A stretch of 64,000 bases of DNA from Lytechinus pictus. Its lineage: Eukaryota. Positions 3,972 through 49,358 of the stretch are shown one piece after another. Made by a program: the position numbers and the translations under genes. Positions within the stretch are counted from its first letter, which is position 1. The number at the start of each line of letters is the position of its first letter. Below the pieces are notes generated by a model. That model saw nothing but the letters and a program-made list of their open reading frames with translations. It ran no database searches and was not told the origin of the DNA. The stretch covers positions 4,838,001 through 4,902,000 of the forward strand of contig NC_087250.1 of assembly GCF_037042905.1 (NCBI RefSeq). The letters run 5' to 3'.

Positions 3972-4428
3972 GTGAAAAGTTTGTTGTAGAAATAGCAGAA
4001 AAAATCATTTAAAAAAATACATATTGATGAATTAAGGTTTGAGAAAAATCAATTAGAGTTTTTTGTGACGTCATAAATGAGCAGATGCCTCAAATGTTAT
4101 TTGTATTATATATAAATTGCACAAATTTCCTTTTATTAATGGTTATTGATCACTCATTTTCTTATTTTATTTTCAGGAGCTGGTGTGAAATGATCAGCGT
4201 ATTGATACACTGAAGGTGTAATAAACACCAATTTCAATTTTCTGAGAAAAATGAAATTTCATTGATTTTTTTACCATACGATATGTAGGAAAGCTGCTCG
4301 CATATGACGTCACAAATGAAACAATTAACATTCTAATAATTTGTTTGTTCTTTGATGGATTCCTCTCAAACTGCAAATATTTGTTTATTATTTTTACAAT
4401 AAACGTTTTGTAAAGGCAAACCTCCCCT
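3972..4428. mobile_element. TTAA-target MITE, 46581 family, partial
   Basis: Shares the AAATAGCAGAAAAA...TTTGTGACGTCATA and GCTGCTCG...TGACGTCACAAA blocks; ends CCTCCCCT|TTAA. Confidence 0.7.
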
Positions 4429-17827: not shown

Positions 17828-20800
17828 TAGTCAAGTAGAACCCCAATATAACCGTCAAGTTGGGTATGACTGCATTTTTTTGCTGGAAGTTGTAGTATAT
17901 GGTGTCTACTCCAAGAATCCGACGGGTGCCACCTGGGCAGCCTTGGGCATTTTTTTATTGACGTCATAGGCCACGCCCACTTTTTGACATATCTCTTAAA
18001 TATGATTTTCATATTTTACGGAAATAACATGTCATGTTAGGTATCAAATTTAAGCTAATGAAAAATCAAATGCAAATATATGGATTAATGGGCATTTAAA
18101 TCACGGATAGGTCAGTAAAAGGTCGTTTAAGGTCATAAAAGGTCAAAATGCCTTACAAATATGAGTAAGACATGTAATGCGGAACATACCATGCTTTAAA
18201 TACAAACAAGTTAGGTATTATATGAGAATTATATAAGAATCAAATGGATGAGGAATTTCATTTTTCTGACGTCAGAAACCACACCAACTTTGAGTTACAT
18301 TCCTCTTAAATATGACTTTTCTATTTAGCGGAATAAGCATATGTTTGAAGTCACATTAAATAAAATTTAAGATAGAATCCATATAATACGTATCGCTACG
18401 CATTGAAAATGTATCCAGGGTAAGTAAAGGTCATTTAAGGTCATAAAAGGTCAAATTGGGTCACATGTAAGTAATGCAACAAATAATGTGTAATATAATA
18501 TGTTTGAACTACAAACAAGTTGGGCATTATTTATGTAGGTCTATTTTTGGCTGAAAGTTATGTTGAGGATGTGCAGATTAAGAGTCTGACAAAGGCTACT
18601 TTGGCAACCTTGGGCAACGTCATGTTCTGACGTTATAAACCACACCATCCTTTTCACATATAGGTCAACTTCTTAATTATGACTATAGTGTACAAAATAA
18701 ACATATCATGTTTCGTATCAAATTAAAGCTTATGGAACATGAAATGTACATTTAAAGGTTAGAAGAAAAAAATGAAGAACGTGTAAAGGTGGCCTTTAGG
18801 TCATTCACACGCATGAAAGGCTGATGATCGCTCGAGTTTCACAGGACTTTATATAAAAACCGTTTAATCTATCATTTTGTATCAAATCATTTCATGGGAT
18901 TCCAAATAATCTACACCAATTTAACATTTTACACCGTGCCCTGTTATATTCCTCTCACAACTACCATATGTACCATACCTCTTCGACCAGATGCTCGTCG
19001 GCGTAGGATTTCCCTTCACTAGCAATCTCAACTACATGCCTCTGCCAGATCAGTGTTTCTTCGATTCACACTTAATCCTTAAAAGTTATAGAACAGGGTG
19101 ACGCTGACTTGTATGGACAAGGAAGTTCTTTTAATTCCTTGGGAACAACCACTGTGTCACGAGTACGGGTAGGCTGAATGTCCCGTTCCATATACTATCA
19201 GCTATCTTCTGAAGATGTAATGGCAGTAGATGCATGTATTATTTTTCTCTGACGACACTAACATTTCTGTTCTACCAGTGTTCTCATTTTGGGTTTACAA
19301 GTCTTTTGCATACTGATGGAAAAGTAATTGACATGATAAACGTATGGCATTGAAGTTTGGAGAAAAATGATAGCTTTGCACAGATTCACTATCAGGTTGT
19401 GATACCATGTTGTGTCAATTTGGCAAAGGGAAAGGTTCTCCTCTAAACTTGATGCTCGAATAAGATCTTAATCTATAGTGTCTGATGCTGAAGAAGTCGA
19501 CTGGATCAAATAAAGGTGTACTAATATTTATACTTTTCATCTTTCTTAACTAATATAACCAATGTAATGGTCTCTCTAAAATTACTTAGCACTACTTCAC
19601 GTTACTTAGCAAGAAGACAGATGCTTGAAAGATCATGAGCCTGCCCCCAACTGACAAGTCAGCAAAATAGCATGACTATCGAAGGTGCTCTTCCTCAGGA
19701 GCTTGATCTGGAGAGCAACTGATCAGAATGACTCCCCTGCAGCTTGCCTCCCATGTATGGATGGGAAGTATAAGTTAGGAGGGCACTCCTGTACCTGTTC
19801 ATAGCACATTAGTTACTCCCAAGTAATAATTATCAGAACTTGTTCCATGTGGATTTAAATCGAGGCCACCATGCTCTAGGGTAAGCATTTGCCACTTATC
19901 GTGTATCGTTTGTAAATATTGTGTCATTCTAAATACAAGGAAACTGAATATGCAGTTGAGACTTAAGAGGGGGAAAGCAGTTTGGAAGATGAATGAGAGA
20001 ACAAAATGTAGTAGAGCTATAGGATGATGTAAAATGTCAAATTTGTCTAATTGGATACTTGTCTAAAATCTGAATTTTTGTTGTAAAAGTAAATTTCTTA
20101 GGTGGCTCAAACATGATTGATATTAAAACGGAAATTGTGTGTAATACATTATTTACTGTGTATGACTCTGTCCTTGATTATAGTTAATATGTTTTTACAG
20201 AAAACTAAAACAAATTAATAAAAAACTGTGCAGTTTTATTTCCTGTAGGAAAATGGGTGATATGATATCAAGTTTATGTTAAATGTTTTGATTAAAGTCT
20301 TGTTACATTGCCTGACATCACTTGACTAACCATTAACATTACTGCACTAAAGGTGATCTTGTCATGTATTTAATCTCTTGTAACTTTTAAAATTGCATTT
20401 TACTTGCCACAAGCTTAAATTAGTTACAAAACACGATAAGTTTATTCTATAAAGGATCACATTCTGTCAATCTGTCATAATTACTTATAGGCCATATGTG
20501 AAAAGTGGGCGTGTTTCGTGACGTCAGAAAATAGAAATTGCCAAAGGGTGAGCAGGTAGAACCCGTCACATCCTTAATGTGCACACCCTCAATCAAACAT
20601 GAGATATTCCACATTATTTGTTGTATTGATTACATCTGTGGCCCAGTTTATAATCTTAAAATGACCTTTAATTGTCCTGGAAAAGATTTAAATGCCTAGT
20701 GATTCATATATTTTGATTTTATTTTGAATTTGATTTGAATTTCTTCCTACCGGGTACCCATTTACCTTACATGGGTTGAGTGCAGCACAGTGTGGATCAA

Positions 20801-21836
20801 TTTCTTGCTGAAGGAAATTACGCCATGGCTGGGATTCGAACCTACGACACTCTGTTTCAAAGTCAGAAGACTAATCCACTGGACCACATCTTGAGGAATT
20901 TCATTTTTCTGACGTCATAAACCAAACCAACTTTCAGATACATTCCTCTTAAATATGACTTTTCTATTTAGCGGAATAAACATATAATGTTTGAAATCAT
21001 GTATCTCCTCATTTCCATATACGCTTAACTTGATACTATTTTATACAAGCTTTTAATATATCATTATGCTGAGGTAAAATTTATCTTGTACTCATACTTT
21101 GATTTGTATCTGTATTTGATTTATATTTGTCATGGAAATGAAAATAAACTTCTTGAATCTTGAATCTTGAAATCACATAAAATAAAATCCATATAATACG
21201 AATCGCTACGCATTAAAAACATGTCCAGGGTAATTTAAGGTCATAAAAGGTTATTATTAAATATGACTTTTCTATTCGATATCAAACATAATATGTTTAT
21301 TCCGCTAAATATTCAAGAGGAATGTGCTGGTGTGGTTTATGACGTCATATGAAATACAATTCCTCAAGATGCCAAAGTAGCAGCGGTCGGATTCTTGATG
21401 CACACCCTCAGCTTAACCTTTGCCAATAGATTCACATAATATGTTTGTATTTAAAACATGATATGTTCCACATTATATGTATTACGTACATTTGCAAGGC
21501 AATTTGACCTTTTATGAACTTAAATTACCTTGAACTGACATATGCGTGCTTTTAATGTCCAATGATCCATAAATTTACATTTGATTTTTCATTAGCTTTA
21601 ATTTGATACCAAACATGACATGTTTATTCCTTAAAATATGAAATACATATTTAAGAGGTATAATGAAAAAATGGGCGTGGCTCATGACGTCAATAACAAA
21701 AAATGCCCAAGGGTGCCCAAGTGGCATCCGTCGGATTCTTGAAGTAGACACCCCATACTACACTTTCCAGCAAGAAAATCGCAGTCATACCCAACTTGAC
21801 GGTCATGCAATATTTTTTATCATATCTACCCGACTA
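17828..21836. mobile_element. Academ (AcademX-type) DNA transposon relic with long TIRs
   Basis: Termini TAGTC...GACTA flanked by 3-bp TSD TGA/TGA; imperfect inverted repeats of several hundred bp (e.g. ACCGTCAAGTTGGGTATGACTGC / GCAGTCATACCCAACTTGACGGT); internal decayed XPG-like and Cys-finger coding remnants. Confidence 0.8.
19190..19930 (+). pseudogene. Decayed Academ transposase C-terminal part (XPG/FEN-like nuclease and Cys zinc finger)
   Basis: Frameshifted, stop-containing remnants in the expected order: SDDTNISVL (19248), LSGCDTMLCQFGKGK (19389-19433), SLPPT (~19640), LIWRA (19703), YGW (19756), CGFKSRPPCSR...LSC..C..C (19848 onward). Confidence 0.75.
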
Positions 21837-30409: not shown

Positions 30410-30992
30410 CATCATGAGAAGGCTACACTAACACGTGTGTGAATATATGGGACTGCATCTGTGTGAGGATATTATTTGACGCCTGATAAATGCATAGTAA
30501 ACTATTTTGATGAAAGACGATCGGTATCGCTTTGCGTGTGCCCCCCCCCCCCCCAAGAACAGCAGATATATCATTCCTTAACATAATTGTAGTGACTATA
30601 ATCTTGGCGAGCCGCTATTTTCCAAGTCATCGAAGTTTTCGTGGTATTCCAACCACCCGGATTTTCGGCTGATGACAGGATCAGATATCTGACTTCGATC
30701 CGACGGTCCAAAAAGATGTCTCATTCCAACGGTGTTGTCATGAGACTCTGATGCCCTTGAGCAGCTTCGCATTTCACAATAAATATCATATTTCGAAGAA
30801 TATTTGTCATACACATGCATCGTTGGATATGTTGGACTGCGGACGGTAGAAAGGAGGAGAGGTAGATCTGATCTCACAGACGATCAGACTTTTGCCACTG
30901 GCAAATCTTCGACAAAATAGATAAAATATGAATAGGAGCTGAATGTTTAATACCCAGAACTGTTCAAGTGTTTCTTCAATTGCAGATGAGCC

Positions 30993-31037
30993 ATGGATGA
31001 AGAAATAACCCTAATCAAACCAGTTGAACCTAAGGAG
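30993..31037 (+). CDS. Probable first coding exon (MDEEITLIKPVEPKE), likely of the Cys-rich small protein gene
   Basis: Acceptor TTTCTTCAATTGCAG ends 30985; GCCATGG Kozak context with an in-frame TGA just upstream; donor GAG|GTAAGC at 31038. It ends in phase 0 while the 39363 exon starts in phase 2, so a linking exon is needed and was not firmly identified. Confidence 0.5.
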
Positions 31038-31071
31038 GTAAGCAGAAGTCGCTCCCGGCCTATACGATTAA

Positions 31072-31484
31072 GGCCACGGGGCCACCGCACCGCACACCTC
31101 GATTACGATTGGTCTGCGATCAATAGAATTTGACGCTCATACTGAAGCATGGAATATCTTACTGTGTAATGTTCTAAATCATCGTACGAAAACCTATGTT
31201 CAAATCTGTGACTATCCTATCATCCTTATTATAATAAAATCGAATTTAATAGCAAGTCGTAATGACGTCATAGCAATCATACGATTGGCTTAAGTGAAAC
31301 TAATTTGCCCTTTACTAAAAAAAAAATGGCTTGCAATCATCCAAAATTGTTATATTAGTATTATTTAAGTTAATTTCATACCTCAAATAAAAAGATACTT
31401 TTCATTCACATTTTCAGAAAATAAGCAAAATGGAATTTGTTCCAAAATCGGATGGTGGACCAGTCGTAAGGTGTGCGGTGACCT
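31072..31484. mobile_element. Harbinger-like MITE
   Basis: GGCCACCGCAC...ACGATTGGTC / GACCAGTCGTAAGGTGTGCGGTGACC inverted ends; left end locally duplicated. Confidence 0.6.
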
Positions 31485-31814
31485 ATATCATGTTTATACG
31501 TATATGCTTTTATATAAATCAGTAGAAAAAAGTGGCCGGCTGTACTTGTGCAGCAGTACGTATAGCGCCGAGCTGCAGGGGTGCTAATAGTTTAATACTA
31601 AATGGTGATTCCATTCAATTTACTTCAATGTCGACTAATTGTATGCATGCAATAGTCCGGAAATTGATAATGAAAAATGTACAAAAAATGATTGGCATTC
31701 ATAGATTTTACCTGACATTAATATAAAAAAGATATATAGTTGACTTGAAACATTGATGATCAAGATTTCAGTATTAAGATCTGTACTAGTAGTAGTATAG
31801 TAGTAGTATAGTAG

Positions 31815-33125
31815 TGAAAGGGTTCGCGCCGACGACCACACAACACAGACACGAGGGCTGAGGCTTCTTGAGTTCTTTTATTGATCAAAGAAAAACAGCC
31901 TCTGTATAACAAAATATAAACAAGCACATGATTAATATAATTACCACACATTACATAATAGCGGTATGAATTACATAATAGCGGTATGAAAAGTAGTACA
32001 GTTCTAAACATACAAATACAGATTTACATTATCAATCAAGGCAATAAACTACATTTTCTTCAGTGACTATTAAAGACAAAGTAAGTCAAGAAGTATATCT
32101 CTTTCATTATTAGATATAAAATCGTATCGACAATATTTTTGTATTCAGAAAACCATAATTTGCATCTATATGATATAAGTTAAACAACTCTACCTAGACC
32201 ATGCACTCACCGGTCAGAACACTAATTCTGCATTTGTTTTCAACATTTCCAGCCTAAGTACATGAAGGGAAGTCCTTGCAGAAGACCTACGGGTATAACA
32301 TAAACATTGATGTATGTCACTTACATTATACACAACCATATTAAGCAATACATAACTATGGGAACATTAGATTTAGTATTTGGTCTATCGACACTGACTT
32401 TTTATTCGTTTCTTTTACTTAAGGCTGTGCAAGAATCTTCCTATCAAAATGAACATTATACATGTAGCAATTGGTAATGCAATGTAAATATAGAATATAA
32501 CAGTCAAAGTGAACTCAGGCACATATCAGATCACTATCAGGTGAGCTTTCTGTCCAATCAAATATCATTCCAAAATTGAGTAATTATAATAACATGCATA
32601 CATATACATATATCACAGTAATAGTATAACATATCAATGAAATAAACATTCAATTTACTAAAATAAGAGTATATATATACATCAACTTACTTATATACTG
32701 CAAAATTAAACTTTCTTCTGCAGGAACAAGTATCCTCATCAACAACAAACAGTAGGAATGCCCTTGCTACTGCCAGTGTCATGAGTCACTGGACTCTCTC
32801 CCTAGCTAACAATAAGAGTGCAATGGTGCACATCAAAGTACAAAAGCATCCCTAAAGGGTGTACATGAATTGGCATTACTGCTACTCCTAAAAAGGCGGG
32901 AAAGAATTAGCCAATGAGCAGAGAGGGAAGGATTAAGGCAAAGTTGGTATAACTTCAGAGAGGGAGAAAGAGTACTAAAGATAAAGTTGGCAGATATAAT
33001 GTGAAATATAGATTTATTATATACATTATATTCAAATGCTACATGTCCTTGAAATGAAATAATAAAATATAGTATCCTTTTAACTAGATTTTTAAATTAA
33101 TAAAAGGAAAACCCAATTTACAACA
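31815..33125 (-). mobile_element. Probable solo LTR (Gypsy-like) inserted in an (AGT)n microsatellite
   Basis: Minus strand reads TGTTG...TTTCA with AATAAA about 60 nt before the 3' end and a GT-rich U5-like stretch; 4-bp flanks GTAG/GTAG (weak evidence because they lie in a microsatellite); AGT repeats on both sides. Confidence 0.6.
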
Positions 33126-33131
33126 GTAGTA

Positions 33132-33164
<33 letters not shown>

Positions 33165-33244
33165 AAGTAGTAGTAGTAGCAGCAGCAGCAGCAACATATA
33201 TCCGTAGTTGTAATAGCAGTAGTAGTAATATAGTAGTAGTAGTA

Positions 33245-33288
<44 letters not shown>

Positions 33289-33412
33289 AAGTAGTACAAG
33301 AAGAAGTAGTAGTAGTAGTAGTAGCAGCAGTAGTAGTAGTAGTAGCAGTAGCAGCAGCAGCAACATACATCAGGAGTTGTAATAGCAGTAGTAGTAATAT
33401 AGTAGTAGTAGT

Positions 33413-33463
<51 letters not shown>

Positions 33464-33501
33464 TAGTAGTATAGTAGTAGTAGTAAAGTAGTACAAGAAG
33501 A

Positions 33502-33536
<35 letters not shown>

Positions 33537-33647
33537 CAGCAGTAGTAGTAGTAGCAGTAGAAGTATTATTATTATTAGTAGTAGTAGTAGTAGTAGTAGT
33601 AGCAGCAGTAGTAGTAGTAGCAGTAGAAGTAGTAGTATTATTATTAT

Positions 33648-33680
<33 letters not shown>

Positions 33681-33728
33681 CAGCAGTAGTAGTAGTAGCA
33701 GTAGAAGTAGTAGTATTATTATTATTAT

Positions 33729-33761
<33 letters not shown>

Positions 33762-33896
33762 CAGCAGTAGTAGTAGTAGCAGTAGAAGTAGTAGTATTAT
33801 TATTATTATTATTAGTAGTAGTAGTAGTAGTAGTAGTAGTAGCAGCAGTAGTAGTAGTAGCAGTAGAAGTAGTAGTATTATTATTATTATTATTAT

Positions 33897-33929
<33 letters not shown>

Positions 33930-34057
33930 CAGCAGTAGTAGTAGTAGCAGTAGAAGTAGTAGTATTATTATTATTAGTTGAAGTAGTAGTAGTAGTAGTA
34001 GTAGTAGCAGCAGTAGTAGTAGTAGCAGTAGAAGTAGTAGTATTATTATTATTAGTT

Positions 34058-34102
<45 letters not shown>

Positions 34103-34120
34103 TTATTATTATTATTAGTT

Positions 34121-34154
<34 letters not shown>

Positions 34155-34235
34155 CAGCAGTAGTAGTAGTAGCAGTAGTAGTAGTAGTATTATTATTATT
34201 AGTTGTAGTAGTAGTAGTAGTAGTAGTAGTAGTAT
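33126..34235. repeat. 1.1-kb compound (AGT)n/(AGC)/(ATT) microsatellite with higher-order ~60-bp period
   Basis: Directly visible: (AGT)n-AGCAGC-(AGT)4-AGCAGTAGA-(AGT)n-(ATT)n repeated about ten times. Confidence 0.95.
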
Positions 34236-34274
34236 AGCAGTATGGCATTTTTATATTGCCATTGTCATCAAATA

Positions 34275-35082
34275 CAGTGCGTCCCACAAAAAACGAAACC
34301 AAGATTTATCGATGATTTATCATAACTTAATCACAAATATAACAGACAAATGACCCACCATTGTAAAGCATAGAATCTCCTCTTTCATCTGAAATTACTT
34401 AAATTATTTCTCATTTACGCATGAGTGAGCAAAAACAATTTGAATAGGGTATACCAAAAAGTCATTTGGCGGGCTGTATCTGGGTTTCAAAACGAAAAAC
34501 CACATTTTTAAAAAGTTCAATATCTGTTCTCAATTACAGAAAATGGTCAAGAAATAACACAGTTCTGGTTATTTGAAATAAGTCTTGAATTCCAATAATT
34601 TCATAAAATGGAGAGGTTTTACAGGCTAGCGTTCAAACTCACTCGACACTCCGTTTTGTTGACGATCAGCCATGCATTAAGTCTTTTTTTAACCGTGCGA
34701 TAACTTCTGTAGGAAACCGGTGAAAACACGTTCATTTAATAAAATTATGGAAATACAAGCATTGTTTCGAGGGAGCATAACTTTTTTACTTCTGGACCAT
34801 TTTTTGTGATTAAGGTATCAAATGAAACTAGCAGATATTGAACTTTTTTAAAATGTGATTTTCTTTTTGAAATTCAGATACCCCCCGCCAAATGAGTTTT
34901 TGGTATCCTTTCTTCAAATTGTTTTTGCTCACTCATGCGTGAATGAGGAATAATCTAAGTAATATCAGATGAAAGAGGAGATTCTAAGCTTTACATTGAT
35001 AGGTCATTTGTCTATTGTATTTATGATTAAGTTATGATAAATCATCGCTAAATCTCGGTTTCGTTTTTTGTGGGACGCACTG
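34275..35082. mobile_element. Tc1/mariner-like foldback MITE, copy 2
   Basis: Same termini, TA TSD and core as 26342, same orientation. Confidence 0.9.
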
Positions 35083-35220
35083 TATATTGGTATTTCTTAA
35101 TTCATAATTGCCATTTTTATCCCCTTCATCATCTGATAATATATTTTTTCTCATCATCATTGTTATTTTCAATTTTATCACCAAACAGTTTTCATTACGA
35201 TTCTCATACTTTGACGTCCG

Positions 35221-37201
35221 GGGGCGGTATTCTGAAAACGTTCTTATCTTAATTTTGTTCTTATCTACGTCACGTTCTCAAATTGGTATTCTGAAAACGT
35301 TCTTATCTTTTTCTTATCTTTTGTTCTTATCTTTTTCTTATCTTGCTTTCCATCGATGCTGAGCGCGTAAATTTATAATTCGCGCATATGATACAAAAGC
35401 GCGCTAAAAGATAAGAACAAAATAAAGATAAGTGGTATTCTGAAAACGTTCTTATCTTTTTTCTTTCTTATCTATTTACGAAATTTATGATAATATTTAA
35501 GATAGCTAGAGGGTTATTACATCTTACGCTGTCCGCCTTCTTTCTTGCTAAAAATCGATGGCCACTGGTAGTAACAAGTATTCATCCCACCCTTTCTTTC
35601 ATTCACCCTTTATTTTGCCTGTCTCTTTTTTCTATCCCTTTTTTCTTTCTTTCTTTCTTTCGTCCTTCCTTTCGTTCTGTCTTTCTTTATTTCATTTAGG
35701 CCTATTTATTTTCTCTTTTTCTTCCTTTCTATCTGTTTGTCTTTTTTTCCTTTCTTTCATTCTTCTTTTTTTTCCCTTTTTTGAATCTTTTAACTTCTTC
35801 CTTATTTTTCTTTTGCGTTATTTTATTTATTCTTTCTTTTTCTTTTTTTAATTGAATTTATTTCCGTTAAAAACCAATAACATAAATACATATGAAATGA
35901 TACATGTGAATTGATAAATGAAAAACGGGAGGATGACCTAGCTCAGCAGCATCAATCATGGTGCTGCTGGTCTACCGGGGTCCTTCCTTTTTTATTTTCC
36001 CTTTTCGATTTTTTCCTTTTTTTCTTTACTAAGTTTTTTTTTCTTTCCCATTTTCTCTCTTTCTTTCTGTTTTTCTTTTCCTTTCTTCCTTCACTTTATT
36101 TATTTTTTGTAATCTTTTTATTTCTTCATTTTTTAGGGTAAATTATATTTCATTTTTTCTTTATTCTTTCCATTGATCTTTCTTCGTTTTTCTTCATTTT
36201 TCCTGCCTTGTTATTTTCCTTCTTTTTCTTTCCTTCTTTGAATTTACCTTTCTTTTTATCTTTATTTAGTTTTCAATTTTGCTTTACTTTTCCTTTCATC
36301 TTTTATCTTCCCTCTCTTATCTCTTTCTTTCTTTCTCTCCCTCTCTTTCTTTATTTCTTTGTTTCATTTTCCCTTTTTCTCTCTTCCGTCACTTTTTACA
36401 TATTTTTATTCCTTCCTTTTTTTTGCTTTCTTTCATTCGTTTTTTCTAACTTTTTTTTGTTCTTTATTCCTTCATTTTATCCTTTTTAATCTTTTTATTT
36501 TGTACTTTTTCGTTTTTTCCTATAAGTTTTTTTTCCTTTTCCTTCTTTATTTTTCCTTCAATGTTTTATTCCTCTTTTTATCATTGATTATCATTCTATC
36601 TATTCCTCCTTTTTCTTTCTTGTATTCTTTCCTTTTTTTATTTCTTTTCATTTTTTAAAATTTTCTTTTAATTTCCTTTTGCTTGCTTTCTTTCGTTTAC
36701 CTTTTCTTTCTTTCATTGTTTTCTGCATTTTGTTAAATTTCTGTTTCATTCTGACCCTTTTCTGTATTCTTACTTACCTACTTACTTTACTTCTTTCTTC
36801 CTGTTTTATTCTTATTCGTAACTGCTTCCTTTACCTTTTTTTCTTTAATTTCTTTCTTTCTTTATTTTGTGCACATGTCTCGAAATAATAATCACTCATT
36901 GCGTATAAAATGCCTATTTCGCGCAGTGCGCAAGAAACAGTGCACGCGCAGCGCCCATGATATTCTCTTCACATAAGGAACGCTTTTATTGGTTAAACTG
37001 CCAATATAAAGCGCATTTTGATTGGTAATATCTTAAAAATGGGCGTGTTGAAGATAAGAAGGAGGCAGTCCTTACAGAGATAAGAACGCGTTAAGAAGAT
37101 TTTCAGAATACCGATTTGCAATGATTTTAGCGTCTTCTTATCTCATTGAGATAAGAACAAAGATAAGAACAAAGATAAGAGCGTTTTCAGAATACCACCC
37201 C
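35221..37201. mobile_element. Harbinger-like MITE split by a long pyrimidine tract
   Basis: GGGGCGGTATTCTGAAAACG...CGTTTTCAGAATACCACCCC TIRs; many TTCTTATCT/AGATAAGAA subterminal repeats. Confidence 0.75.
35580..36870. repeat. ~1.3-kb T/C-rich low-complexity tract
   Basis: Extreme pyrimidine skew with decayed (TTTC)n; interrupted at ~35850-35985. Confidence 0.9.
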
Positions 37202-37369
37202 AGGTGAGCATGTTGTTAAATACAGAGTTTTCATACAGCTACGCAGAACACTTTCAAGAACATAGAAAATTCATTTTCAAATGCCCTCCATGACAATAAG
37301 CAACCAAGAGGTCTTTGTCGAAAATTGGTGATCATAACGGCAGTGTCGTCCTGGATTCTTGACAAACGA

Positions 37370-37580
37370 TATATTTCGGCGAAGTACATCTGTCGAATCA
37401 TTTAAAAGACATCTGAAAACATACTTATTTTTGTTGTAAGTGTAATTGTAACACATGGAGAGTAATTTATGTAAAGCGCATGGAACAGTTTTAATTGATT
37501 ATGCGCTGAATAAGCACTAATTTATTATCATTTTTTAATTATTATTATTATTGTTGTTATTATTATCATCATTGTTATTA

Positions 37581-37616
<36 letters not shown>
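37370..37616 (+). mobile_element. L2-clade LINE 3' remnant with (ATT)n tail
   Basis: STSVESFKRHLKTYLF peptide, AGCGCAT...ATGCGCT terminal stem, then ATT repeats. Confidence 0.7.
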
Positions 37617-37618
<2 letters not shown>

Positions 37619-38859
37619 CCTCCTAGCAGTTCAGTGTCTTTTGACGGGCATTTTCAATACATCGACGGTGTTTTTTGATACGCACCTGAACGCGGAACTG
37701 TTTTGAAACCTGGCACTATTGCCTTCATAGGGCTGATCACCGAAAGCAGCGGAGGGAGAAAACCAGGAAGGAAGGGGGGTTGGGGCGGTGATGAAAATGC
37801 ATAAGATATTTTTTTATAGTTATTTCCACATATTTTGTACCCTTTTTTTACTGAAAAAGATGCCCTTACAGGTTTCACGACCCCTATTAAATACACTCAT
37901 GGGAAGGTTCCATTCGAGATTGAGAATTCGACTTTAATAATCATTGAAATAAACATTCACAAAAATGCACGCGCGCACCTAATATCTACTTGTCATGTCC
38001 GCTCCAAGTTGACAGCAAGTTTATATGAATACATTGAGAAAAATCAAAGAGGCATATATGCAACACTGAAAATAATCAAAATAGGATTCCAATAAAGAAA
38101 TTAGACGTCATCACTTTTTTTACATCCAATTTTAATTGAATTTTCAGTCTTGCTCTTGTTTAATCTTTCTTAGTCTATTCTATAAACTTGGTTTAGGGTT
38201 AGGGTTGATCGACCTTTTAAAGGTTGTTCGAAACTAAACTTATACATCATGTTTCAAAAGCATTTTTTAGTTCTCAATACATCAGGAATTATTGAATGAC
38301 GATTCGGTTCCGACAATATGACAGACTTTTCGCATTTTGAAAAGACTGTTTTCTGCTTGAGTTTGCTTCCTTTGCCTATATTTATTCTGTTTATCACAAA
38401 TTCAAGCAGAGATGAGCAGGATGATGTTCTTAAAATTAATCGGATATTATCATAAAACTGTCAAAGATATTCTCTAATAAAATTACGCCTACTTCCACAC
38501 AAACAAGCTGAATATTATCGAGCATGTCGAGGTGGATATAATCCTTTTTTTTCCTTTTTTTTTCTAGCCTTTATGTTATGCTTATTCATTTTATTAGCAG
38601 ACTTAGTTATGAACCCACAAAAATGTAAACGTTAATCCATAAGATGACAAAATTTTATTGGTGACATTTTAGTACAAAAACAAAAACAAGAGGTGGTTTT
38701 AGACCAGGGAGAATACCAGGAATACTATTTTTGTCATTACCACTTCTGTTTTTTAACTAACTTTCGAACGACTGACAAGAAACATTAAAAAGTTTCGATC
38801 GAAAGATTGGTTTGTTCATCACCAAATCTTTGAAGTGTATAACAGCAATCATTGTAAGA

Positions 38860-39360
38860 TGCATTATTTTTCACTATATCACCTCTCCAAAGCAACCTTA
38901 GTAACAGTCATTATTTGTCACTAAATCACGTCTCGGACGCAACCATAGTATCACCTCTCATAAACAACCATACTAACGGTCATTATTTTTCACTATTTAT
39001 CACATCTGAAGCAACCATAGTAACAGTCGTTTTTTTTTTTCACCTCTCCGAAGGAACCATAGCAACAGTCATTTTCACTCTCTCACCTCTCGAAAACAAT
39101 CATAGTAGCTGTCAATATTTTTTTTTTTACTATTTCACCTGTCCGAAGCAACCATTACGTTGTGCAAACCCTTCACTATAGTAAAGGGTATGAGTGTGCC
39201 CTGTGCAGCCTATAATGTTTCGTGTATACAAGAGGCCCTCTATATGTGCTAGTCTTTGCCTGGAGACCCACTTGTTGATCAAAGTTTCAATCCGGGTCTG
39301 TGTCTGCAGACTACATAGTAACGGTAGTTATTTTTCACTATTCCACTCCTCCGAATGCAC
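38860..39360. repeat. Degenerate ~46-bp tandem repeat upstream of the Cys-rich exon
   Basis: Recurring TTATTTTTCACTA..CACCTCTCCGAAGCAACCATAGTAACAGTCA units. Confidence 0.8.
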
Positions 39361-39362
39361 AG

Positions 39363-39501
39363 CACTCATAGGACGGATGACCGATGTGCAAATTGGGATT
39401 GCCATGGTGATGGTGAATGCACGGAGGTTCTCTTCGGATGTCTTCTGTGCCATTGTCTGTTCGGAGGCGACTCGAACGACTCCTGCAACGATTGTTGCCC
39501 G
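39363..39501 (+). CDS. Cys/Asp-rich small protein, internal exon (THRTDDRCANWDCHGDGECTEVLFGCLLCHCLFGGDSNDSCNDCCP)
   Basis: CAG acceptor ends 39362; open frame with 9 Cys in 46 codons; strong donor CCG|GTAAGA at 39502 (phase 0) matches the next exon; elevated GC. An in-frame ATG at 39355 is an alternative start. Confidence 0.7.
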
Positions 39502-39794
39502 GTAAGACTGTGCTAATGCCCGAATTATTTAACTTAAGTCTTAGACAATGATCTGACATTGTGCTAAAATTATGAGAAGCCGTATAAATATATTATTTTC
39601 AATGTCTTATATTTAATTTGCCCTTCCCGCTTGCTTTAAATGGTCACGGAAAATATTTAAGTTATCACCAGACAACTGTGAATGATTTGAATGTCACCTG
39701 CACTGTTAGATATCTGTGTGTCACGATTAGCTATCCATAGGTAGTATACCAAAGCCCTAGTTCAGTACATAAGGGTTAGTTTAATTATTTAGAG

Positions 39795-40090
39795 GAATCT
39801 CCCTACTGTCAGTGACGTCACATCGGGGACTGCTTCGCCTGATCGAATCTCGTGCACTTTCGGTGACGTCACTTTGGGGACGTACTGTTTGCCTAATGGG
39901 ATGGCCCTGTCGGTAACACCATACCCATGATACCAGGATCTGCTTCGCCTGATTAGATCTCACTGTCAGTGACGTCATATCAGGGACAGCTTCTCTTGAT
40001 GGGATCTTACTGTCAGTGACGTCACATCAGAGATTGCCTTATCTAATGGGATCTTACTGTCAGTGACGTCACATCAGGGACTGCTTCCTA
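39795..40090. repeat. ~47-51 bp tandem repeat (six units) containing CRE palindromes
   Basis: TGACGTCA at 39813, 39864, 39970, 40017 and 40064; one degenerate unit near 39910. Confidence 0.9.
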
Positions 40091-40419
40091 GTATGTTTTA
40101 CAAACCATTCACTCCAGTTAAGTGTCCTGAATGCGCATACTACAATAACTTGTGTACAGATAAGGCACTCTCGCTAGTTTTATATTTGCGAGTATTTATG
40201 TTTCAGTATCATACAAAATGCTAGTCATGTTTATGAACATTATCGCTCTAAACTTTAAAAAGATTTTTTTTTTTAAATAAGAAGAAAAAAAAAACGGGTC
40301 AGGTAAACGATGAAACTGGATCTGTTGGAGACACACACTATTCCGGGTATGAAATAACCAGGATAACTTTTTGTGTGACTTACTGTGGTTTCTTTTTTGT
40401 CTTTGATCGATTCATCCAG

Positions 40420-40506
40420 GCATGCGACTGCAAGGACTGTGGCGACTGCGACTGTGGGAATTGCGATTGTGGAGACTGCGGGAATTGCGACTGTAACTTC
40501 AGCTAG
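40420..40506 (+). CDS. Cys/Asp-rich small protein, last coding exon (ACDCKDCGDCDCGNCDCGDCGNCDCNFS*)
   Basis: T-rich tract and CCAG acceptor end 40419 (phase 0); 10 Cys in 28 aa; repeat units vary at synonymous positions (TGC/TGT, GAC/GAT, GGC/GGG/GGA); TAG stop at 40504-40506. Confidence 0.75.
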   Translation, partial: ACDCKDCGDCDCGNCDCGDCGNCDCNFS

Positions 40507-40843
40507 TCTTCGACACCAGCTGCCTGGGCAGGTCGTGAAAGGTGCTAGATGAATGATATAAACGACAGCTATCCAGGATCAGGACTGGCGAGAAGGACAA
40601 AGAAACTGTTTTTCGACAAAGACCTCCTAGGTTTTCATTTTGCCTGCTAGGGTTGATTCCGCGTAGTTGAGCGAAAACACGCTATTATCATGATTATATG
40701 GACAACAGCTCGAATGACCACATGGACCACAGCCGAGAAGAAAATATGCTGATCACCACAGATCACACCAGTTTGATCTGCTTCGAGTTTGAGCAGAAGA
40801 TATAGATCAATAAACGTAGAGGGCGCGCGTCATGAATGACCTG

Positions 40844-40988
40844 GGGCCCGTTGCAGAAAGAGTTGCGTTTAAACGCAAGCCAAAAAATCAATCGCAAGTC
40901 CCAAATGCACGCTGTTGATTGGTTGAATATCAAGTTGCGCGTGATTTTTAGAGTTGCGATTGATTGCAACTCTTTCTGCAACGGGCCC
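40844..40988. mobile_element. Harbinger-like short MITE in the putative 3' UTR of the Cys-rich gene
   Basis: GGGCCCGTTGCAGAAAGAGTTGC...GCAACTCTTTCTGCAACGGGCCC with CWG flanks. Confidence 0.8.
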
Positions 40989-42009
40989 CAGACCAGTGGG
41001 GCATACAAATGCGACTTATTTTGCCTACATGTATATCGAAATTTTATTCATGGCCAGCGATAGCCGATGATAATAATTTCCAATCGATGCACCTCACTGA
41101 TTTATCAAACAAAATTCATGATACACACTCTTTTCAGTTTGGTTCTGAAGAGTATACAGCTGTATCGCATATTGCATCTTCAAGTCTTTTGCTCCATATA
41201 GAAGCTGCAAATCGATAGCAAAAATAAATAAATAGATAATGTTCTCAATAATTAGACCTCACTGTTTATATGTTACGAAGTTTATTGCAAATGTTACTTT
41301 GAGTAATTATGCAATGTGAAGTTCAGAGAACTATCAAGTAATTTAATAGGCCATTGGGCTGTTGGTATGAAACAAATACCCCTCCCCCTTTTTGTGTACG
41401 TTAGGGATGCTGAATTAAATGAAACGTTTATTAATATATTCGTGTTTGTAACAAAAGTAATTCTATTTTTATATCACCTGTACAATAATGTTCGGAAATA
41501 TTACTAAGTATGAGGCTATATTGCATTATTATAAACAATTTTTTTTTACCTGAAAGCTGAAAATACACTTTTATCAACAGGCCTATATAATATATTTATG
41601 TTTGCATGAAAATACTATGTTGTTCTATTTTTGCGAGCAGCTGTGTGAAATAAGTATGAAAGTAAATTATTATCATTGCAGTTTAATTTAGTTTTAAGGG
41701 GCATCCAGTTGCCTTTGCCTCAAGAATTTGTGTGTCTTGAAATATTGGTGTATTATATTAGCAATATATATATTTCATTTTTTGTATCATACCAGTTTTG
41801 TCTGTATAAAATATCAAACGATACACTGTGTTGAAATTCACTTCCAAAATTTATGATATAAATGAGATCTGTAAAATCAGCTGGTAGAAAATGACACCGT
41901 TCAGATCATTTTCATGGCACTTACATAACAAGCGTCGAGATTTGATAAACAAAACCAACCCCAACCTTAGGTACAAAAATGTTTTTCTTCATCTAAAGCT
42001 AGTATTGTA

Positions 42010-48022: not shown

Positions 48023-48841
48023 TTAATGAGGGATGTTAATAATAACTGGAGACTTTTAATTCTATGGACACCCATGCATTCTTCCTTCAAAATGCAATAT
48101 TAGATTTAATGCGATTTATAATTTCAGTTACACTCAGAACTCCTTTATGTAATTAGATCGGTCATAAGGAAAATCTTGGTGTAATTTAATCTATTAGTTC
48201 AGTTCAGTTCAGTTCAGTTCAACTTATTCAATTCCAATATTAAAAACATTTAATAACACATTGGATAAAAAATGCAATTCAAGATAAAATAAAGTAGTTC
48301 AATGGTATGTACATGCATATTGAATAGAAAAAGTATTGAAATTAGGTATAGCTGTAAAAAACCATAAAGGTCTTGTCAAGACAGCTCCCTTAATAACATA
48401 AGATTTGATCAATTAATAAAAGCGGAGAACAATTCAGTAAATATTCAGTAAATAAAAATGAATTGCGTCTTACACCAAGACAAACCCAGAACAAACATAC
48501 ATGTAAAGGGTAGAAGAGAATGAAAAGCAGAGGGGGGGGGGGGATTGAGAGTGAAAAGAAGACAAAAATCATTTAAAATTCAACGAGAGTCATGTTTGAT
48601 CAAATATAGCTTTACATTGTGCTTAAATCTGTTATAAAATGAAATTGAGGTTATACATGTAGGGAGTATTGAATGCATAAAAAAAATTATCTACTCTTTG
48701 TATAATATCTTTGTATGTTCATATTTTTTGTAAACGTGTATATTTCAGCGACTGGCTGCCAATCCTGTATTGCCAATAAACGATTACTATTCTATTATTC
48801 TATTCATACCATTCAATTTGTTTTCATTGCTTTCTCTGTAG

Positions 48842-49358
48842 ATTGCTATCACTCCTGGGTACAGTGTTTGGCTTTGTTGCATCTGACATGAAACACAAAT
48901 GCAACATCATCGACGGCCATCGAGAAGACCATCCTGAGGAATTCACCACCGTCCAGACTATGATCGATTACGAGATGCGGGAGAATCTCACGGCGCGGAA
49001 GGACGAGAAAGGGCGCGACAGCGGCTGCCGGACCTTCCTCCGACTTCACAGAGCGCTCGAGTTCTTCTGCGTCCTCCTCAAACGGCTGAAACCCGCCAAG
49101 GGGACGGACCCAACGTCGACTCTCACGTCGAAAACGTACGGGGAGACGCTGGGGAAGTACCACCCGTGGTTCGTGCGGCAGATGGCGTACCTCGCGATCA
49201 AGACATTGCCGAACAAGCAGCAGCTCATTCATCGTTATTGTTTGCAAGACGCGGAGGAAGCGCAGGCGTTGGTTATACTCTCGCTTCAAGCGATGGAGGT
49301 GGTCTACGACAAAACGCAGGATATCTTGGCGCACCACGATCTACTCAATTTACCATAA
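48842..49358 (+). CDS. CPTP: Ceramide-1-phosphate transfer protein (GLTP domain), coding exon 2
   Basis: Polypyrimidine tract and TAG acceptor ending 48841; phase matches exon 1 (AG+A=Arg). Contains LGTVFGFVASDMKHK, SGCRTFLRLHRAL, YHPW and C-terminal LLNLP, typical of CPTP/GLTPD1/ACD11. GC-rich coding composition against AT-rich flanks. Confidence 0.95.

Follow-up and report, generated by a model that had tools for sequence, protein, structure and literature searches.

Does the forward strand of a 64,000-nucleotide stretch of Lytechinus pictus DNA (assembly GCF_037042905.1, contig NC_087250.1, positions 4,838,001 to 4,902,000; hereafter the window) hold a new gene for a small Cys-rich protein between window positions 30986 and 40506? 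The original prediction described a hidden spliced gene there, whose peptide ends in an acidic repeat, (CDCG[DN])n, and in a CaaX-like CNFS. We show here that, as far as sequence comparison can tell, the two exons flagged there close the coding sequence of a gene for a small Cys-rich protein that has already been predicted in public annotation and is unstudied. Taking all the evidence together, we consider it likely that the locus is an incomplete copy, lacking exon 2, of an uncharacterised gene family that has so far been seen only in camarodont sea urchins.

With a GC content of 0.30–0.41, the window is rich in AT, and it contains no N; the exons can be read from it directly. The penultimate coding exon, which corresponds to exon 3 of the related genes, lies at 39363..39501 on the plus strand and was recovered by translation, by tblastn and by a match to the family profile (E 7.5e-28). 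It is bounded by an acceptor, ...GAATGCACAG/C, at 39362/39363 and a donor, CCG/GTAAGA, at 39501/39502. Base 39363 finishes a split Ser codon and is followed by 46 codons (39364-39501), running from THRTDDRCANWDC to SCNDCCP and including the Cys-rich hydrophobic stretch EVLFGCLLCHCLF. The coding part of the last exon, exon 4, lies at 40420..40506 on the same strand (translation; profile match E 1.7e-10), behind an acceptor, ...ATTCATCCAG/G, at 40419/40420, and encodes in 28 codons the acidic CxC/CxxC tail ACDCKDCGDCDCGNCDCGDCGNCDCNFS before a TAG stop. Because exon 3 consists of 46 whole codons, the junction 39501^40420 is in phase 0, and joining the two exons gives a product of 74 residues with 19 Cys. 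The two exons with their GT/AG signals, their matching phase and the resulting peptide were thus reproduced by translation exactly as first described. The presumed 3' untranslated region (UTR) extends over 40507..40814 on the plus strand, up to a candidate AATAAA at 40809-40814, as read from the sequence only.

Two further statements about these exons hold in part. It is plausible that the open reading frame (ORF) track misses the gene, as the exons fall in stop-to-stop frames of 62 and 84 amino acids that have no ATG of their own. The synonymous variation reported for the repeat, which Tandem Repeats Finder places at 40435-40480 inside exon 4 (period 15, 3.1 copies), is weakly borne out: between pairs of the three 15-nt units, 5 nucleotide differences are synonymous versus 4 that alter D/N codons. 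With only three units and 5 versus 4 differences, there are too few sites to sustain the argument for protein-level selection that had been attached to the repeat.

An upstream exon, the first coding exon, was placed at 30986..31037 on the plus strand by tblastn and family-profile matches and by reading the sequence. Its start codon at 30993 stands in the context GCCATGG and is followed by codons for a total of 15 residues and a phase-0 donor, GAG/GTAAGC. The TTGCAG acceptor immediately 5' of this exon implies that a further, upstream 5'UTR exon exists. The main start is overlapped by a mini-ORF of 4 codons (ATG AGC CAT GGA TGA, 30986-31000), which begins with an ATG at 30986 in another frame.

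A word-indexed search with the exon-3 peptide returned a single cluster, LOC129263530 of L. pictus (143 aa, 98% identity). Four Lytechinus models carry the protein: XP_054756943.1 (P0007; L. pictus, 143 aa), automatically named "outer dense fiber protein 1-like"; XP_054757411.1 (P0004; L. pictus, uncharacterized protein LOC129263530); and, from L. variegatus, XP_041467121.1 (P0005; uncharacterized protein LOC121417467) and XP_041467067.1 (P0006; uncharacterized protein LOC121417425). The 74 residues encoded by exons 3 and 4 in the window are identical at every position (74/74) to the C-terminus of P0007, while 72 of the 74 agree with P0004 and 71 with each of P0005 and P0006. Exon 1, in which the window has a variant of its own (Ile at residue 8), matches residues 1-15 of P0007 at 14 of 15 positions, which bears out the upstream exon at 30986-31037, and the three exons taken together agree with XP_054756943.1 at 88 of 89 residues. 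The public Lytechinus annotation therefore already holds this protein, and with RefSeq models in L. pictus, L. variegatus and Strongylocentrotus purpuratus the gene is neither hidden nor new. The same Lytechinus and Strongylocentrotus models bear out the expectation that the reading frame would be conserved in related genomes.

The relatives carry an exon that we could not find in the window. Residues 16-69, encoded by exon 2 (~161 nt), are present in all relatives, including all six RefSeq models, and the motif within them occurs in 8/8 database members. At this locus the exon should lie in the interval 31038..39362 on the plus strand, an 8.3-kb segment in which it was not found. Searching the 64-kb window by tblastn with three family proteins (E ≤ 10, word size 2) recovered exons 1, 3 and 4 and nothing else credible, and a 4-mer scan for exon 2 in the six frames of the window gave scattered single words only. 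When the family profile was run with hmmsearch --max against 4397 six-frame segments of the window, only profile positions 1-17, 68-116 and 110-143 were matched, all remaining matches having E > 1. In none of the six frames does the 64-kb window contain the central motif, QPIPEDPSE...KKRSNMVGRGEY. The picture of two exons and an upstream exon had overlooked this exon, which is present between the counterparts of 31037 and 39363 in all relatives and missing here.

The phase-0 end of exon 1 does not fit exon 3, which begins on the last base of a split codon; joining them directly puts the reading out of frame, with a stop at codon 18. As it stands, the locus would be unable to make the family protein. 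Exons 1, 3 and 4 show no damage and differ hardly at all from P0007, so the loss of exon 2 would be either very recent or an assembly fault; we infer a truncated copy of very recent origin, a deletion allele or a loss in assembly. The interval without exon 2 also contains a 1.1-kb (AGT)n microsatellite at 33125-34242 (~376 copies, 86% matches) and, downstream of this array, a CT-rich low-complexity stretch at ~35300-36900.

The family to which this locus belongs is small and apparently restricted to sea urchins, judging from homology searches. With P0007 as a query, phmmer without a word index found 3 proteins at E ≤ 0.001 among 1.84 billion representatives of all lengths: the Lytechinus cluster, a Strongylocentrotus purpuratus cluster and a 78-aa fragment from an ENA contig. 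A six-member profile searched against 5.8 billion proteins of 65-251 aa gave 518 candidates, 3 of them at E ≤ 1. The S. purpuratus members (LOC105447170, LOC105447166 and LOC105447167; RefSeq models XP_030848567.1 and XP_030848568.1) are 64-68% identical and include P0010 (132 aa), in which the tail is shortened, and P0011 (119 aa), in which nearly all of it is absent. P0008 (XP_011683223.1), an older S. purpuratus model of the same gene, departs from the family frame within the hydrophobic stretch; its different end, a basic tail unrelated to the family, reflects a mis-prediction or else an alternative 3' end.

No described family claims the peptide, in keeping with the original prediction, which assigned it to none. 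In Pfam-A, no family rose above noise (E ≤ 10) for any of the 8 family proteins or for the two exon peptides, and searches of PDB sequences with the family profile, P0007 and both exon peptides yielded noise only. In the ESM Atlas, the top feature scores, 0.84 for a viral hypothetical protein and 0.76 for CYSTM, were both below the noise level of the tool, and a named-only search with residues 70-143 returned nothing. A CopC match in Pfam (E 0.077; bit score 14.5, cut-off 23.3), obtained with one of the four Lytechinus proteins (P0007), was rejected as noise. Two PDB matches, to gelation factor (E 2.7) and, for exon 3, to an L-selectin EGF domain (E 0.38), were rejected for want of significance and because the protein has no signal peptide. 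Literature searches under the LOC identifiers, the XP accessions or the outer dense fiber protein name together with Lytechinus found no paper on the family.

The protein of the relatives has 119-143 aa and is built in three parts. The first is an acidic N-terminal half with neither a hydrophobic leader nor a confident predicted structure, within which QPIPEDPSE...KKRSNMVGRGEY..TTKVTSTSTHR.DDRCA is invariant. Next comes a short segment that is hydrophobic and rich in Cys, LF.CLLCHC.FGG, followed as the third part by an acidic CxC/CxxC tail that differs in length among species and paralogs. In an alignment of 8 sequences, the 34 invariant columns fall almost entirely within residues 20-66, in exon 2, and include QPIPEDPSE and KKRSNMVGRGEY; TTKVTSTSTHR.DDRCA is invariant among the six good members. 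Compared exon by exon, L. pictus P0007 and S. purpuratus P0010 are identical at 5/15 residues in exon 1, 40/54 in exon 2, 28/46 in exon 3 and 15/28, with 9 gaps, in exon 4, and P0011 retains 3 of the 28 exon-4 residues with 22 gaps. On these alignments, the best-conserved part of the family is the exon 2 motif and not the Cys tail, the (CDCG[DN])n tail being the most variable. The weight that the original prediction placed on the Cys/Asp tail thus fell on the least conserved part of the protein (15/28 with 9 gaps versus 40/54 in exon 2), and since P0011 lacks nearly all of it, the tail is not essential to the family.

Ten Cys are invariant in 6/6 members. Nine of these (C77, 82, 88, 95, 98, 100, 110, 113 and 117) were taken from the alignment summary and the tenth, numbered 114 in P0007, was added from a per-column print; several lie inside or flank the LF.CLLCHC.FGG stretch. 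The 143-aa protein contains 20 Cys and 3 His, has W, F and Y, and is strongly acidic, with 32 D+E versus 11 K+R. Its N-terminus is not hydrophobic (Kyte-Doolittle mean of -0.93 for the first 25 residues), and the sole hydrophobic stretch, at residues 88-102, has a Kyte-Doolittle value of 1.81 in Lytechinus and 2.24 in S. purpuratus. AlphaFold, supplied with a 6-row alignment, predicted, at very low confidence throughout, one long helix, at residues 86-102, and none of any length at the distal end.

For the intact members of the family, we tentatively favor a mechanism in which the protein serves as a membrane-tethered adaptor with an S-acylated Cys-rich helix, although on balance we think it somewhat improbable. 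A hydrophobic helix that is short and studded with Cys is, in cytosolic proteins, the typical substrate for multiple S-acylation. In this proposal, the protein would be cytosolic and would be tethered to the inner face of the membrane by multiple S-acylation of helix 86-102; the conserved N-terminal motif would bind a partner, and the variable acidic Cys tail might supply further acylation sites or metal-thiolate sites. This mechanism is preferred because the family has no hydrophobic N-terminus and has a single hydrophobic stretch coinciding with the predicted helix, and because of an analogy, which is not a homology, with MDFI-type proteins.

RNA evidence was sought in the 3' 4 kb of the gene by mapping one contig run and three raw RNA runs to 37650-41700 at 92% likeness. 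The raw runs were sampled at ~6, ~6 and ~25 reads per 100, and their tissues and stages are unspecified. Depth in this segment is confined to two multi-copy elements, at ~39243-39313 and 40840-40992, and the presumed 3'UTR gained no RNA reads in its favor. None of the 12 joints listed from the mapping connects 39501 with 40420, and the predicted splice therefore gained no junction reads. Because the sampling was sparse and the tissues are unspecified, a lack of reads does not amount to silence of this copy.

Of these two elements, the one upstream of exon 3 (39243-39313) is covered by all four runs, shows many variant letters and loose ends at 39243, 39266 and 39313, and loses depth ~50 bases before exon 3. 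The other (40840-40992) is short, has inverted ends (GGGCCCGTTGCAGAAAGAGTTGCG ... CGCAACTCTTTCTGCAACGGGCCCC) and lies just 3' of the candidate poly(A) signal; all four runs cover it very deeply, and the reads there show numerous variant letters and have loose ends at either side. For this element, the pattern suggests a high-copy repeat, similar to a miniature inverted-repeat transposable element, that is transcribed elsewhere.

Several observations weigh against reading the locus as an incomplete copy of such an adaptor gene. In the mapping described above, the bins that cover exon 3 (39418-39553) and exon 4 (40370-40505) have a depth of 0 in both 6-per-100 runs and at most about 1 read in the 25-per-100 run. 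Every relative is a computational gene model, no protein or transcript having been seen. The undamaged state of exons 1, 3 and 4 fits a working gene as well as it fits a very young pseudogene, and the absence of exon 2 could be a fault of the assembly. As to the mechanism, it draws on composition, on one helix predicted with low confidence (mean predicted local distance difference test score, pLDDT, of 35) and on analogy, and P0011 does without nearly all of the tail.

The intact exons and splice signals also invite the view that the window copy is a working gene that uses another middle exon. A 53-nt segment at 31418..31470 on the plus strand has a pyrimidine-rich acceptor and an AAG/GTGTGC donor and would restore the frame, giving a product of ~107 aa with the same Cys end and no conserved motif. 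However, the 8.3-kb interval contains 156 phase-compatible open AG..GT segments, of which 3 pass a crude splice-signal filter, such that one would be expected by chance, and the segment is probably such a chance occurrence. Neither it nor any of the others resembles the family profile, the collections searched (the profile search at 65-251 aa and the all-length phmmer search) contain no such protein, and the product would lose the sole strongly conserved part of the family. We thus regard a substitute exon as highly improbable. Still further from being credible is the notion that the exons are chance open frames and that no gene exists: the absence of RNA reads on the exons in the three raw runs would suit it, but a 74/74 identity to an independent gene model and a frame kept in two other species at 64-97% identity leave it almost no room. 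An incomplete copy of an existing family gene accordingly stays the preferred account of the locus.

With respect to function, the main alternative sees in the tail a metallothionein-like module, with metal-thiolate sites for the buffering of Zn, Cu or Cd. In favor of this idea, 19 of the 74 residues are Cys, set between Asp residues in CxC and CxxC motifs. No metallothionein match was found in Pfam, however, and the protein contains W, F, Y and 3 His, with Cys making up 20 of 143 residues; moreover, the tail is shortened in P0010 and nearly absent in P0011, and selection has kept the non-Cys exon 2. We therefore hold metal buffering to be unlikely, if less so than the other alternatives discussed here. 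Another thought is that the Cys-rich end is a very diverged I-mfa domain (MDFI/MDFIC/MDFIC2) and that the protein is a palmitoylated regulator of PIEZO-like channels or of transcription factors. The layout is alike, with a Cys-rich hydrophobic stretch, acidic Cys clusters and a C-x-F-S end, and MDFI-type proteins, according to two papers (PMC13080014, PMC12626003), act via a palmitoylated Cys-rich C-terminal helix. Against this, neither a Pfam MDFI match nor an MDFIC chain from the PDB was obtained at E ≤ 10, the Atlas searches gave nothing usable, and the distal tail consists of Gly/Asp-rich CxC repeats rather than a hydrophobic helix and is nearly absent in one paralog. Such an origin of the Cys-rich end seems quite unlikely. 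Slightly less likely again would be a fuller version, in which the family is the sea-urchin counterpart of I-mfa/MDFI, by deep divergence or by convergence, and works as a palmitoylated membrane adaptor whose KKRSNMVGRGEY motif docks a channel or transcription factor, the window locus then being an anchor-only natural variant. The acylated adaptor without MDFI ancestry, tentative as it is, remains our favored mechanism for the intact members.

Features in the neighborhood of the gene are of separate interest. The palindrome TGACGTCA, which resembles a cAMP response element, occurs 14 times in the window versus 0.52 expected, and none of 100 shuffles reaches 14. Five of the copies lie in a 47-bp minisatellite at 39805-40101, in the last intron of the gene, and others lie at 4066, 4305, 17959, 18267, 20519-21685 and 31263. 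This clustered distribution suggests a dispersed repeat family that carries the site. About 8 kb downstream, on the same strand as the Cys-rich gene, the neighboring gene at 48780-49355 (+) has a 192-aa open frame that matches positions 13-146 of the 147-position Pfam profile for the glycolipid transfer protein domain (GLTP; E 6.7e-38).

The gene itself adds nothing new, as its RefSeq prediction exists in three sea-urchin species. What is worth keeping is a lineage-restricted family for which no Pfam family, solved relative or paper was found. Its strongest constraint falls on a short non-Cys motif, and functional work would thus be better begun there than on the Cys/Asp tail. The locus, which lacks the exon for that motif, is either a natural truncation or a trap set by annotation or assembly.

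It is useful to set the family beside the systems that its composition recalls. ODF1 combines a small-heat-shock (alpha-crystallin) domain with C-terminal Cys-Gly-Pro repeats, and P0007 resembles it only in its Cys/Gly-rich repetitive C-terminus; no small-heat-shock or other Pfam domain was detected in P0007. The NCBI name "outer dense fiber protein 1-like" looks composition-driven. Metallothioneins are classically defined by a Cys content that is very high and by the scarcity or lack of aromatic and His residues. The family shares their dense CxC/CxxC motifs but differs in having a long acidic non-Cys N-terminal half, aromatic residues, His and a variable, dispensable tail.

Similar considerations apply to lipid-modified proteins. 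Prenylation at a CaaX box calls for a Cys at position -4, then two residues that are mostly aliphatic, and a final residue of a suitable kind. All 4 Lytechinus proteins end in CNFS, P0010 ends in CDFN and P0011 in ELLS, and the residue at -3 in CNFS and CDFN is N or D. Since these C-terminal residues differ among species, a conserved prenylation box is unsupported, and the CaaX-like end proposed originally is not a conserved feature. Like CYSTM proteins, the members are small, have no signal peptide and carry a Cys-rich hydrophobic segment near the C-terminus. Unlike CYSTM proteins, whose Cys-rich transmembrane segment sits at the extreme C-terminus, they have no corresponding Pfam match and a hydrophobic stretch of only ~15 residues, and because 41 residues follow stretch 88-102 in Lytechinus, the family protein is not a tail anchor.

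A further comparison is with MDFI, MDFIC and MDFIC2. The resemblances to MDFI, CYSTM and metallothionein that had been suggested gained no support from the Pfam or PDB-sequence searches. For the Pfam MDFI model (PF15316), no match was found at E ≤ 10 with the 8 family proteins and the 2 exon peptides, although the HMMER filters may hide very weak ones. No MDFIC chain was recovered among PDB sequences at E ≤ 10 with the profile, P0007 or either exon peptide, and a literature search for I-mfa/MDFI in sea urchin, echinoderm or invertebrate orthologs found nothing relevant. In PMC13080014 and PMC12626003, the palmitoylated Cys-rich helix of the three proteins is described as C-terminal and as lying along the inner face of the membrane, with the distal Cys-bearing alpha-helix binding PIEZO; the PIEZO1-MDFIC structure is given as 8IMZ (PMC13080014). 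The sea-urchin family differs from these proteins in that it has no detectable sequence relationship with them, its predicted helix is internal (86-102) and not distal, and its distal acidic CxC repeat is dispensable in one paralog. It is like them in being small, in its Cys-rich C-terminal region and in its hydrophobic Cys-bearing helix, which in the family is a predicted one. If the palmitoyl-anchor idea is true, the family would add an example from the invertebrates to the Cys-rich lipidated adaptors that the MDFI proteins represent in vertebrates.

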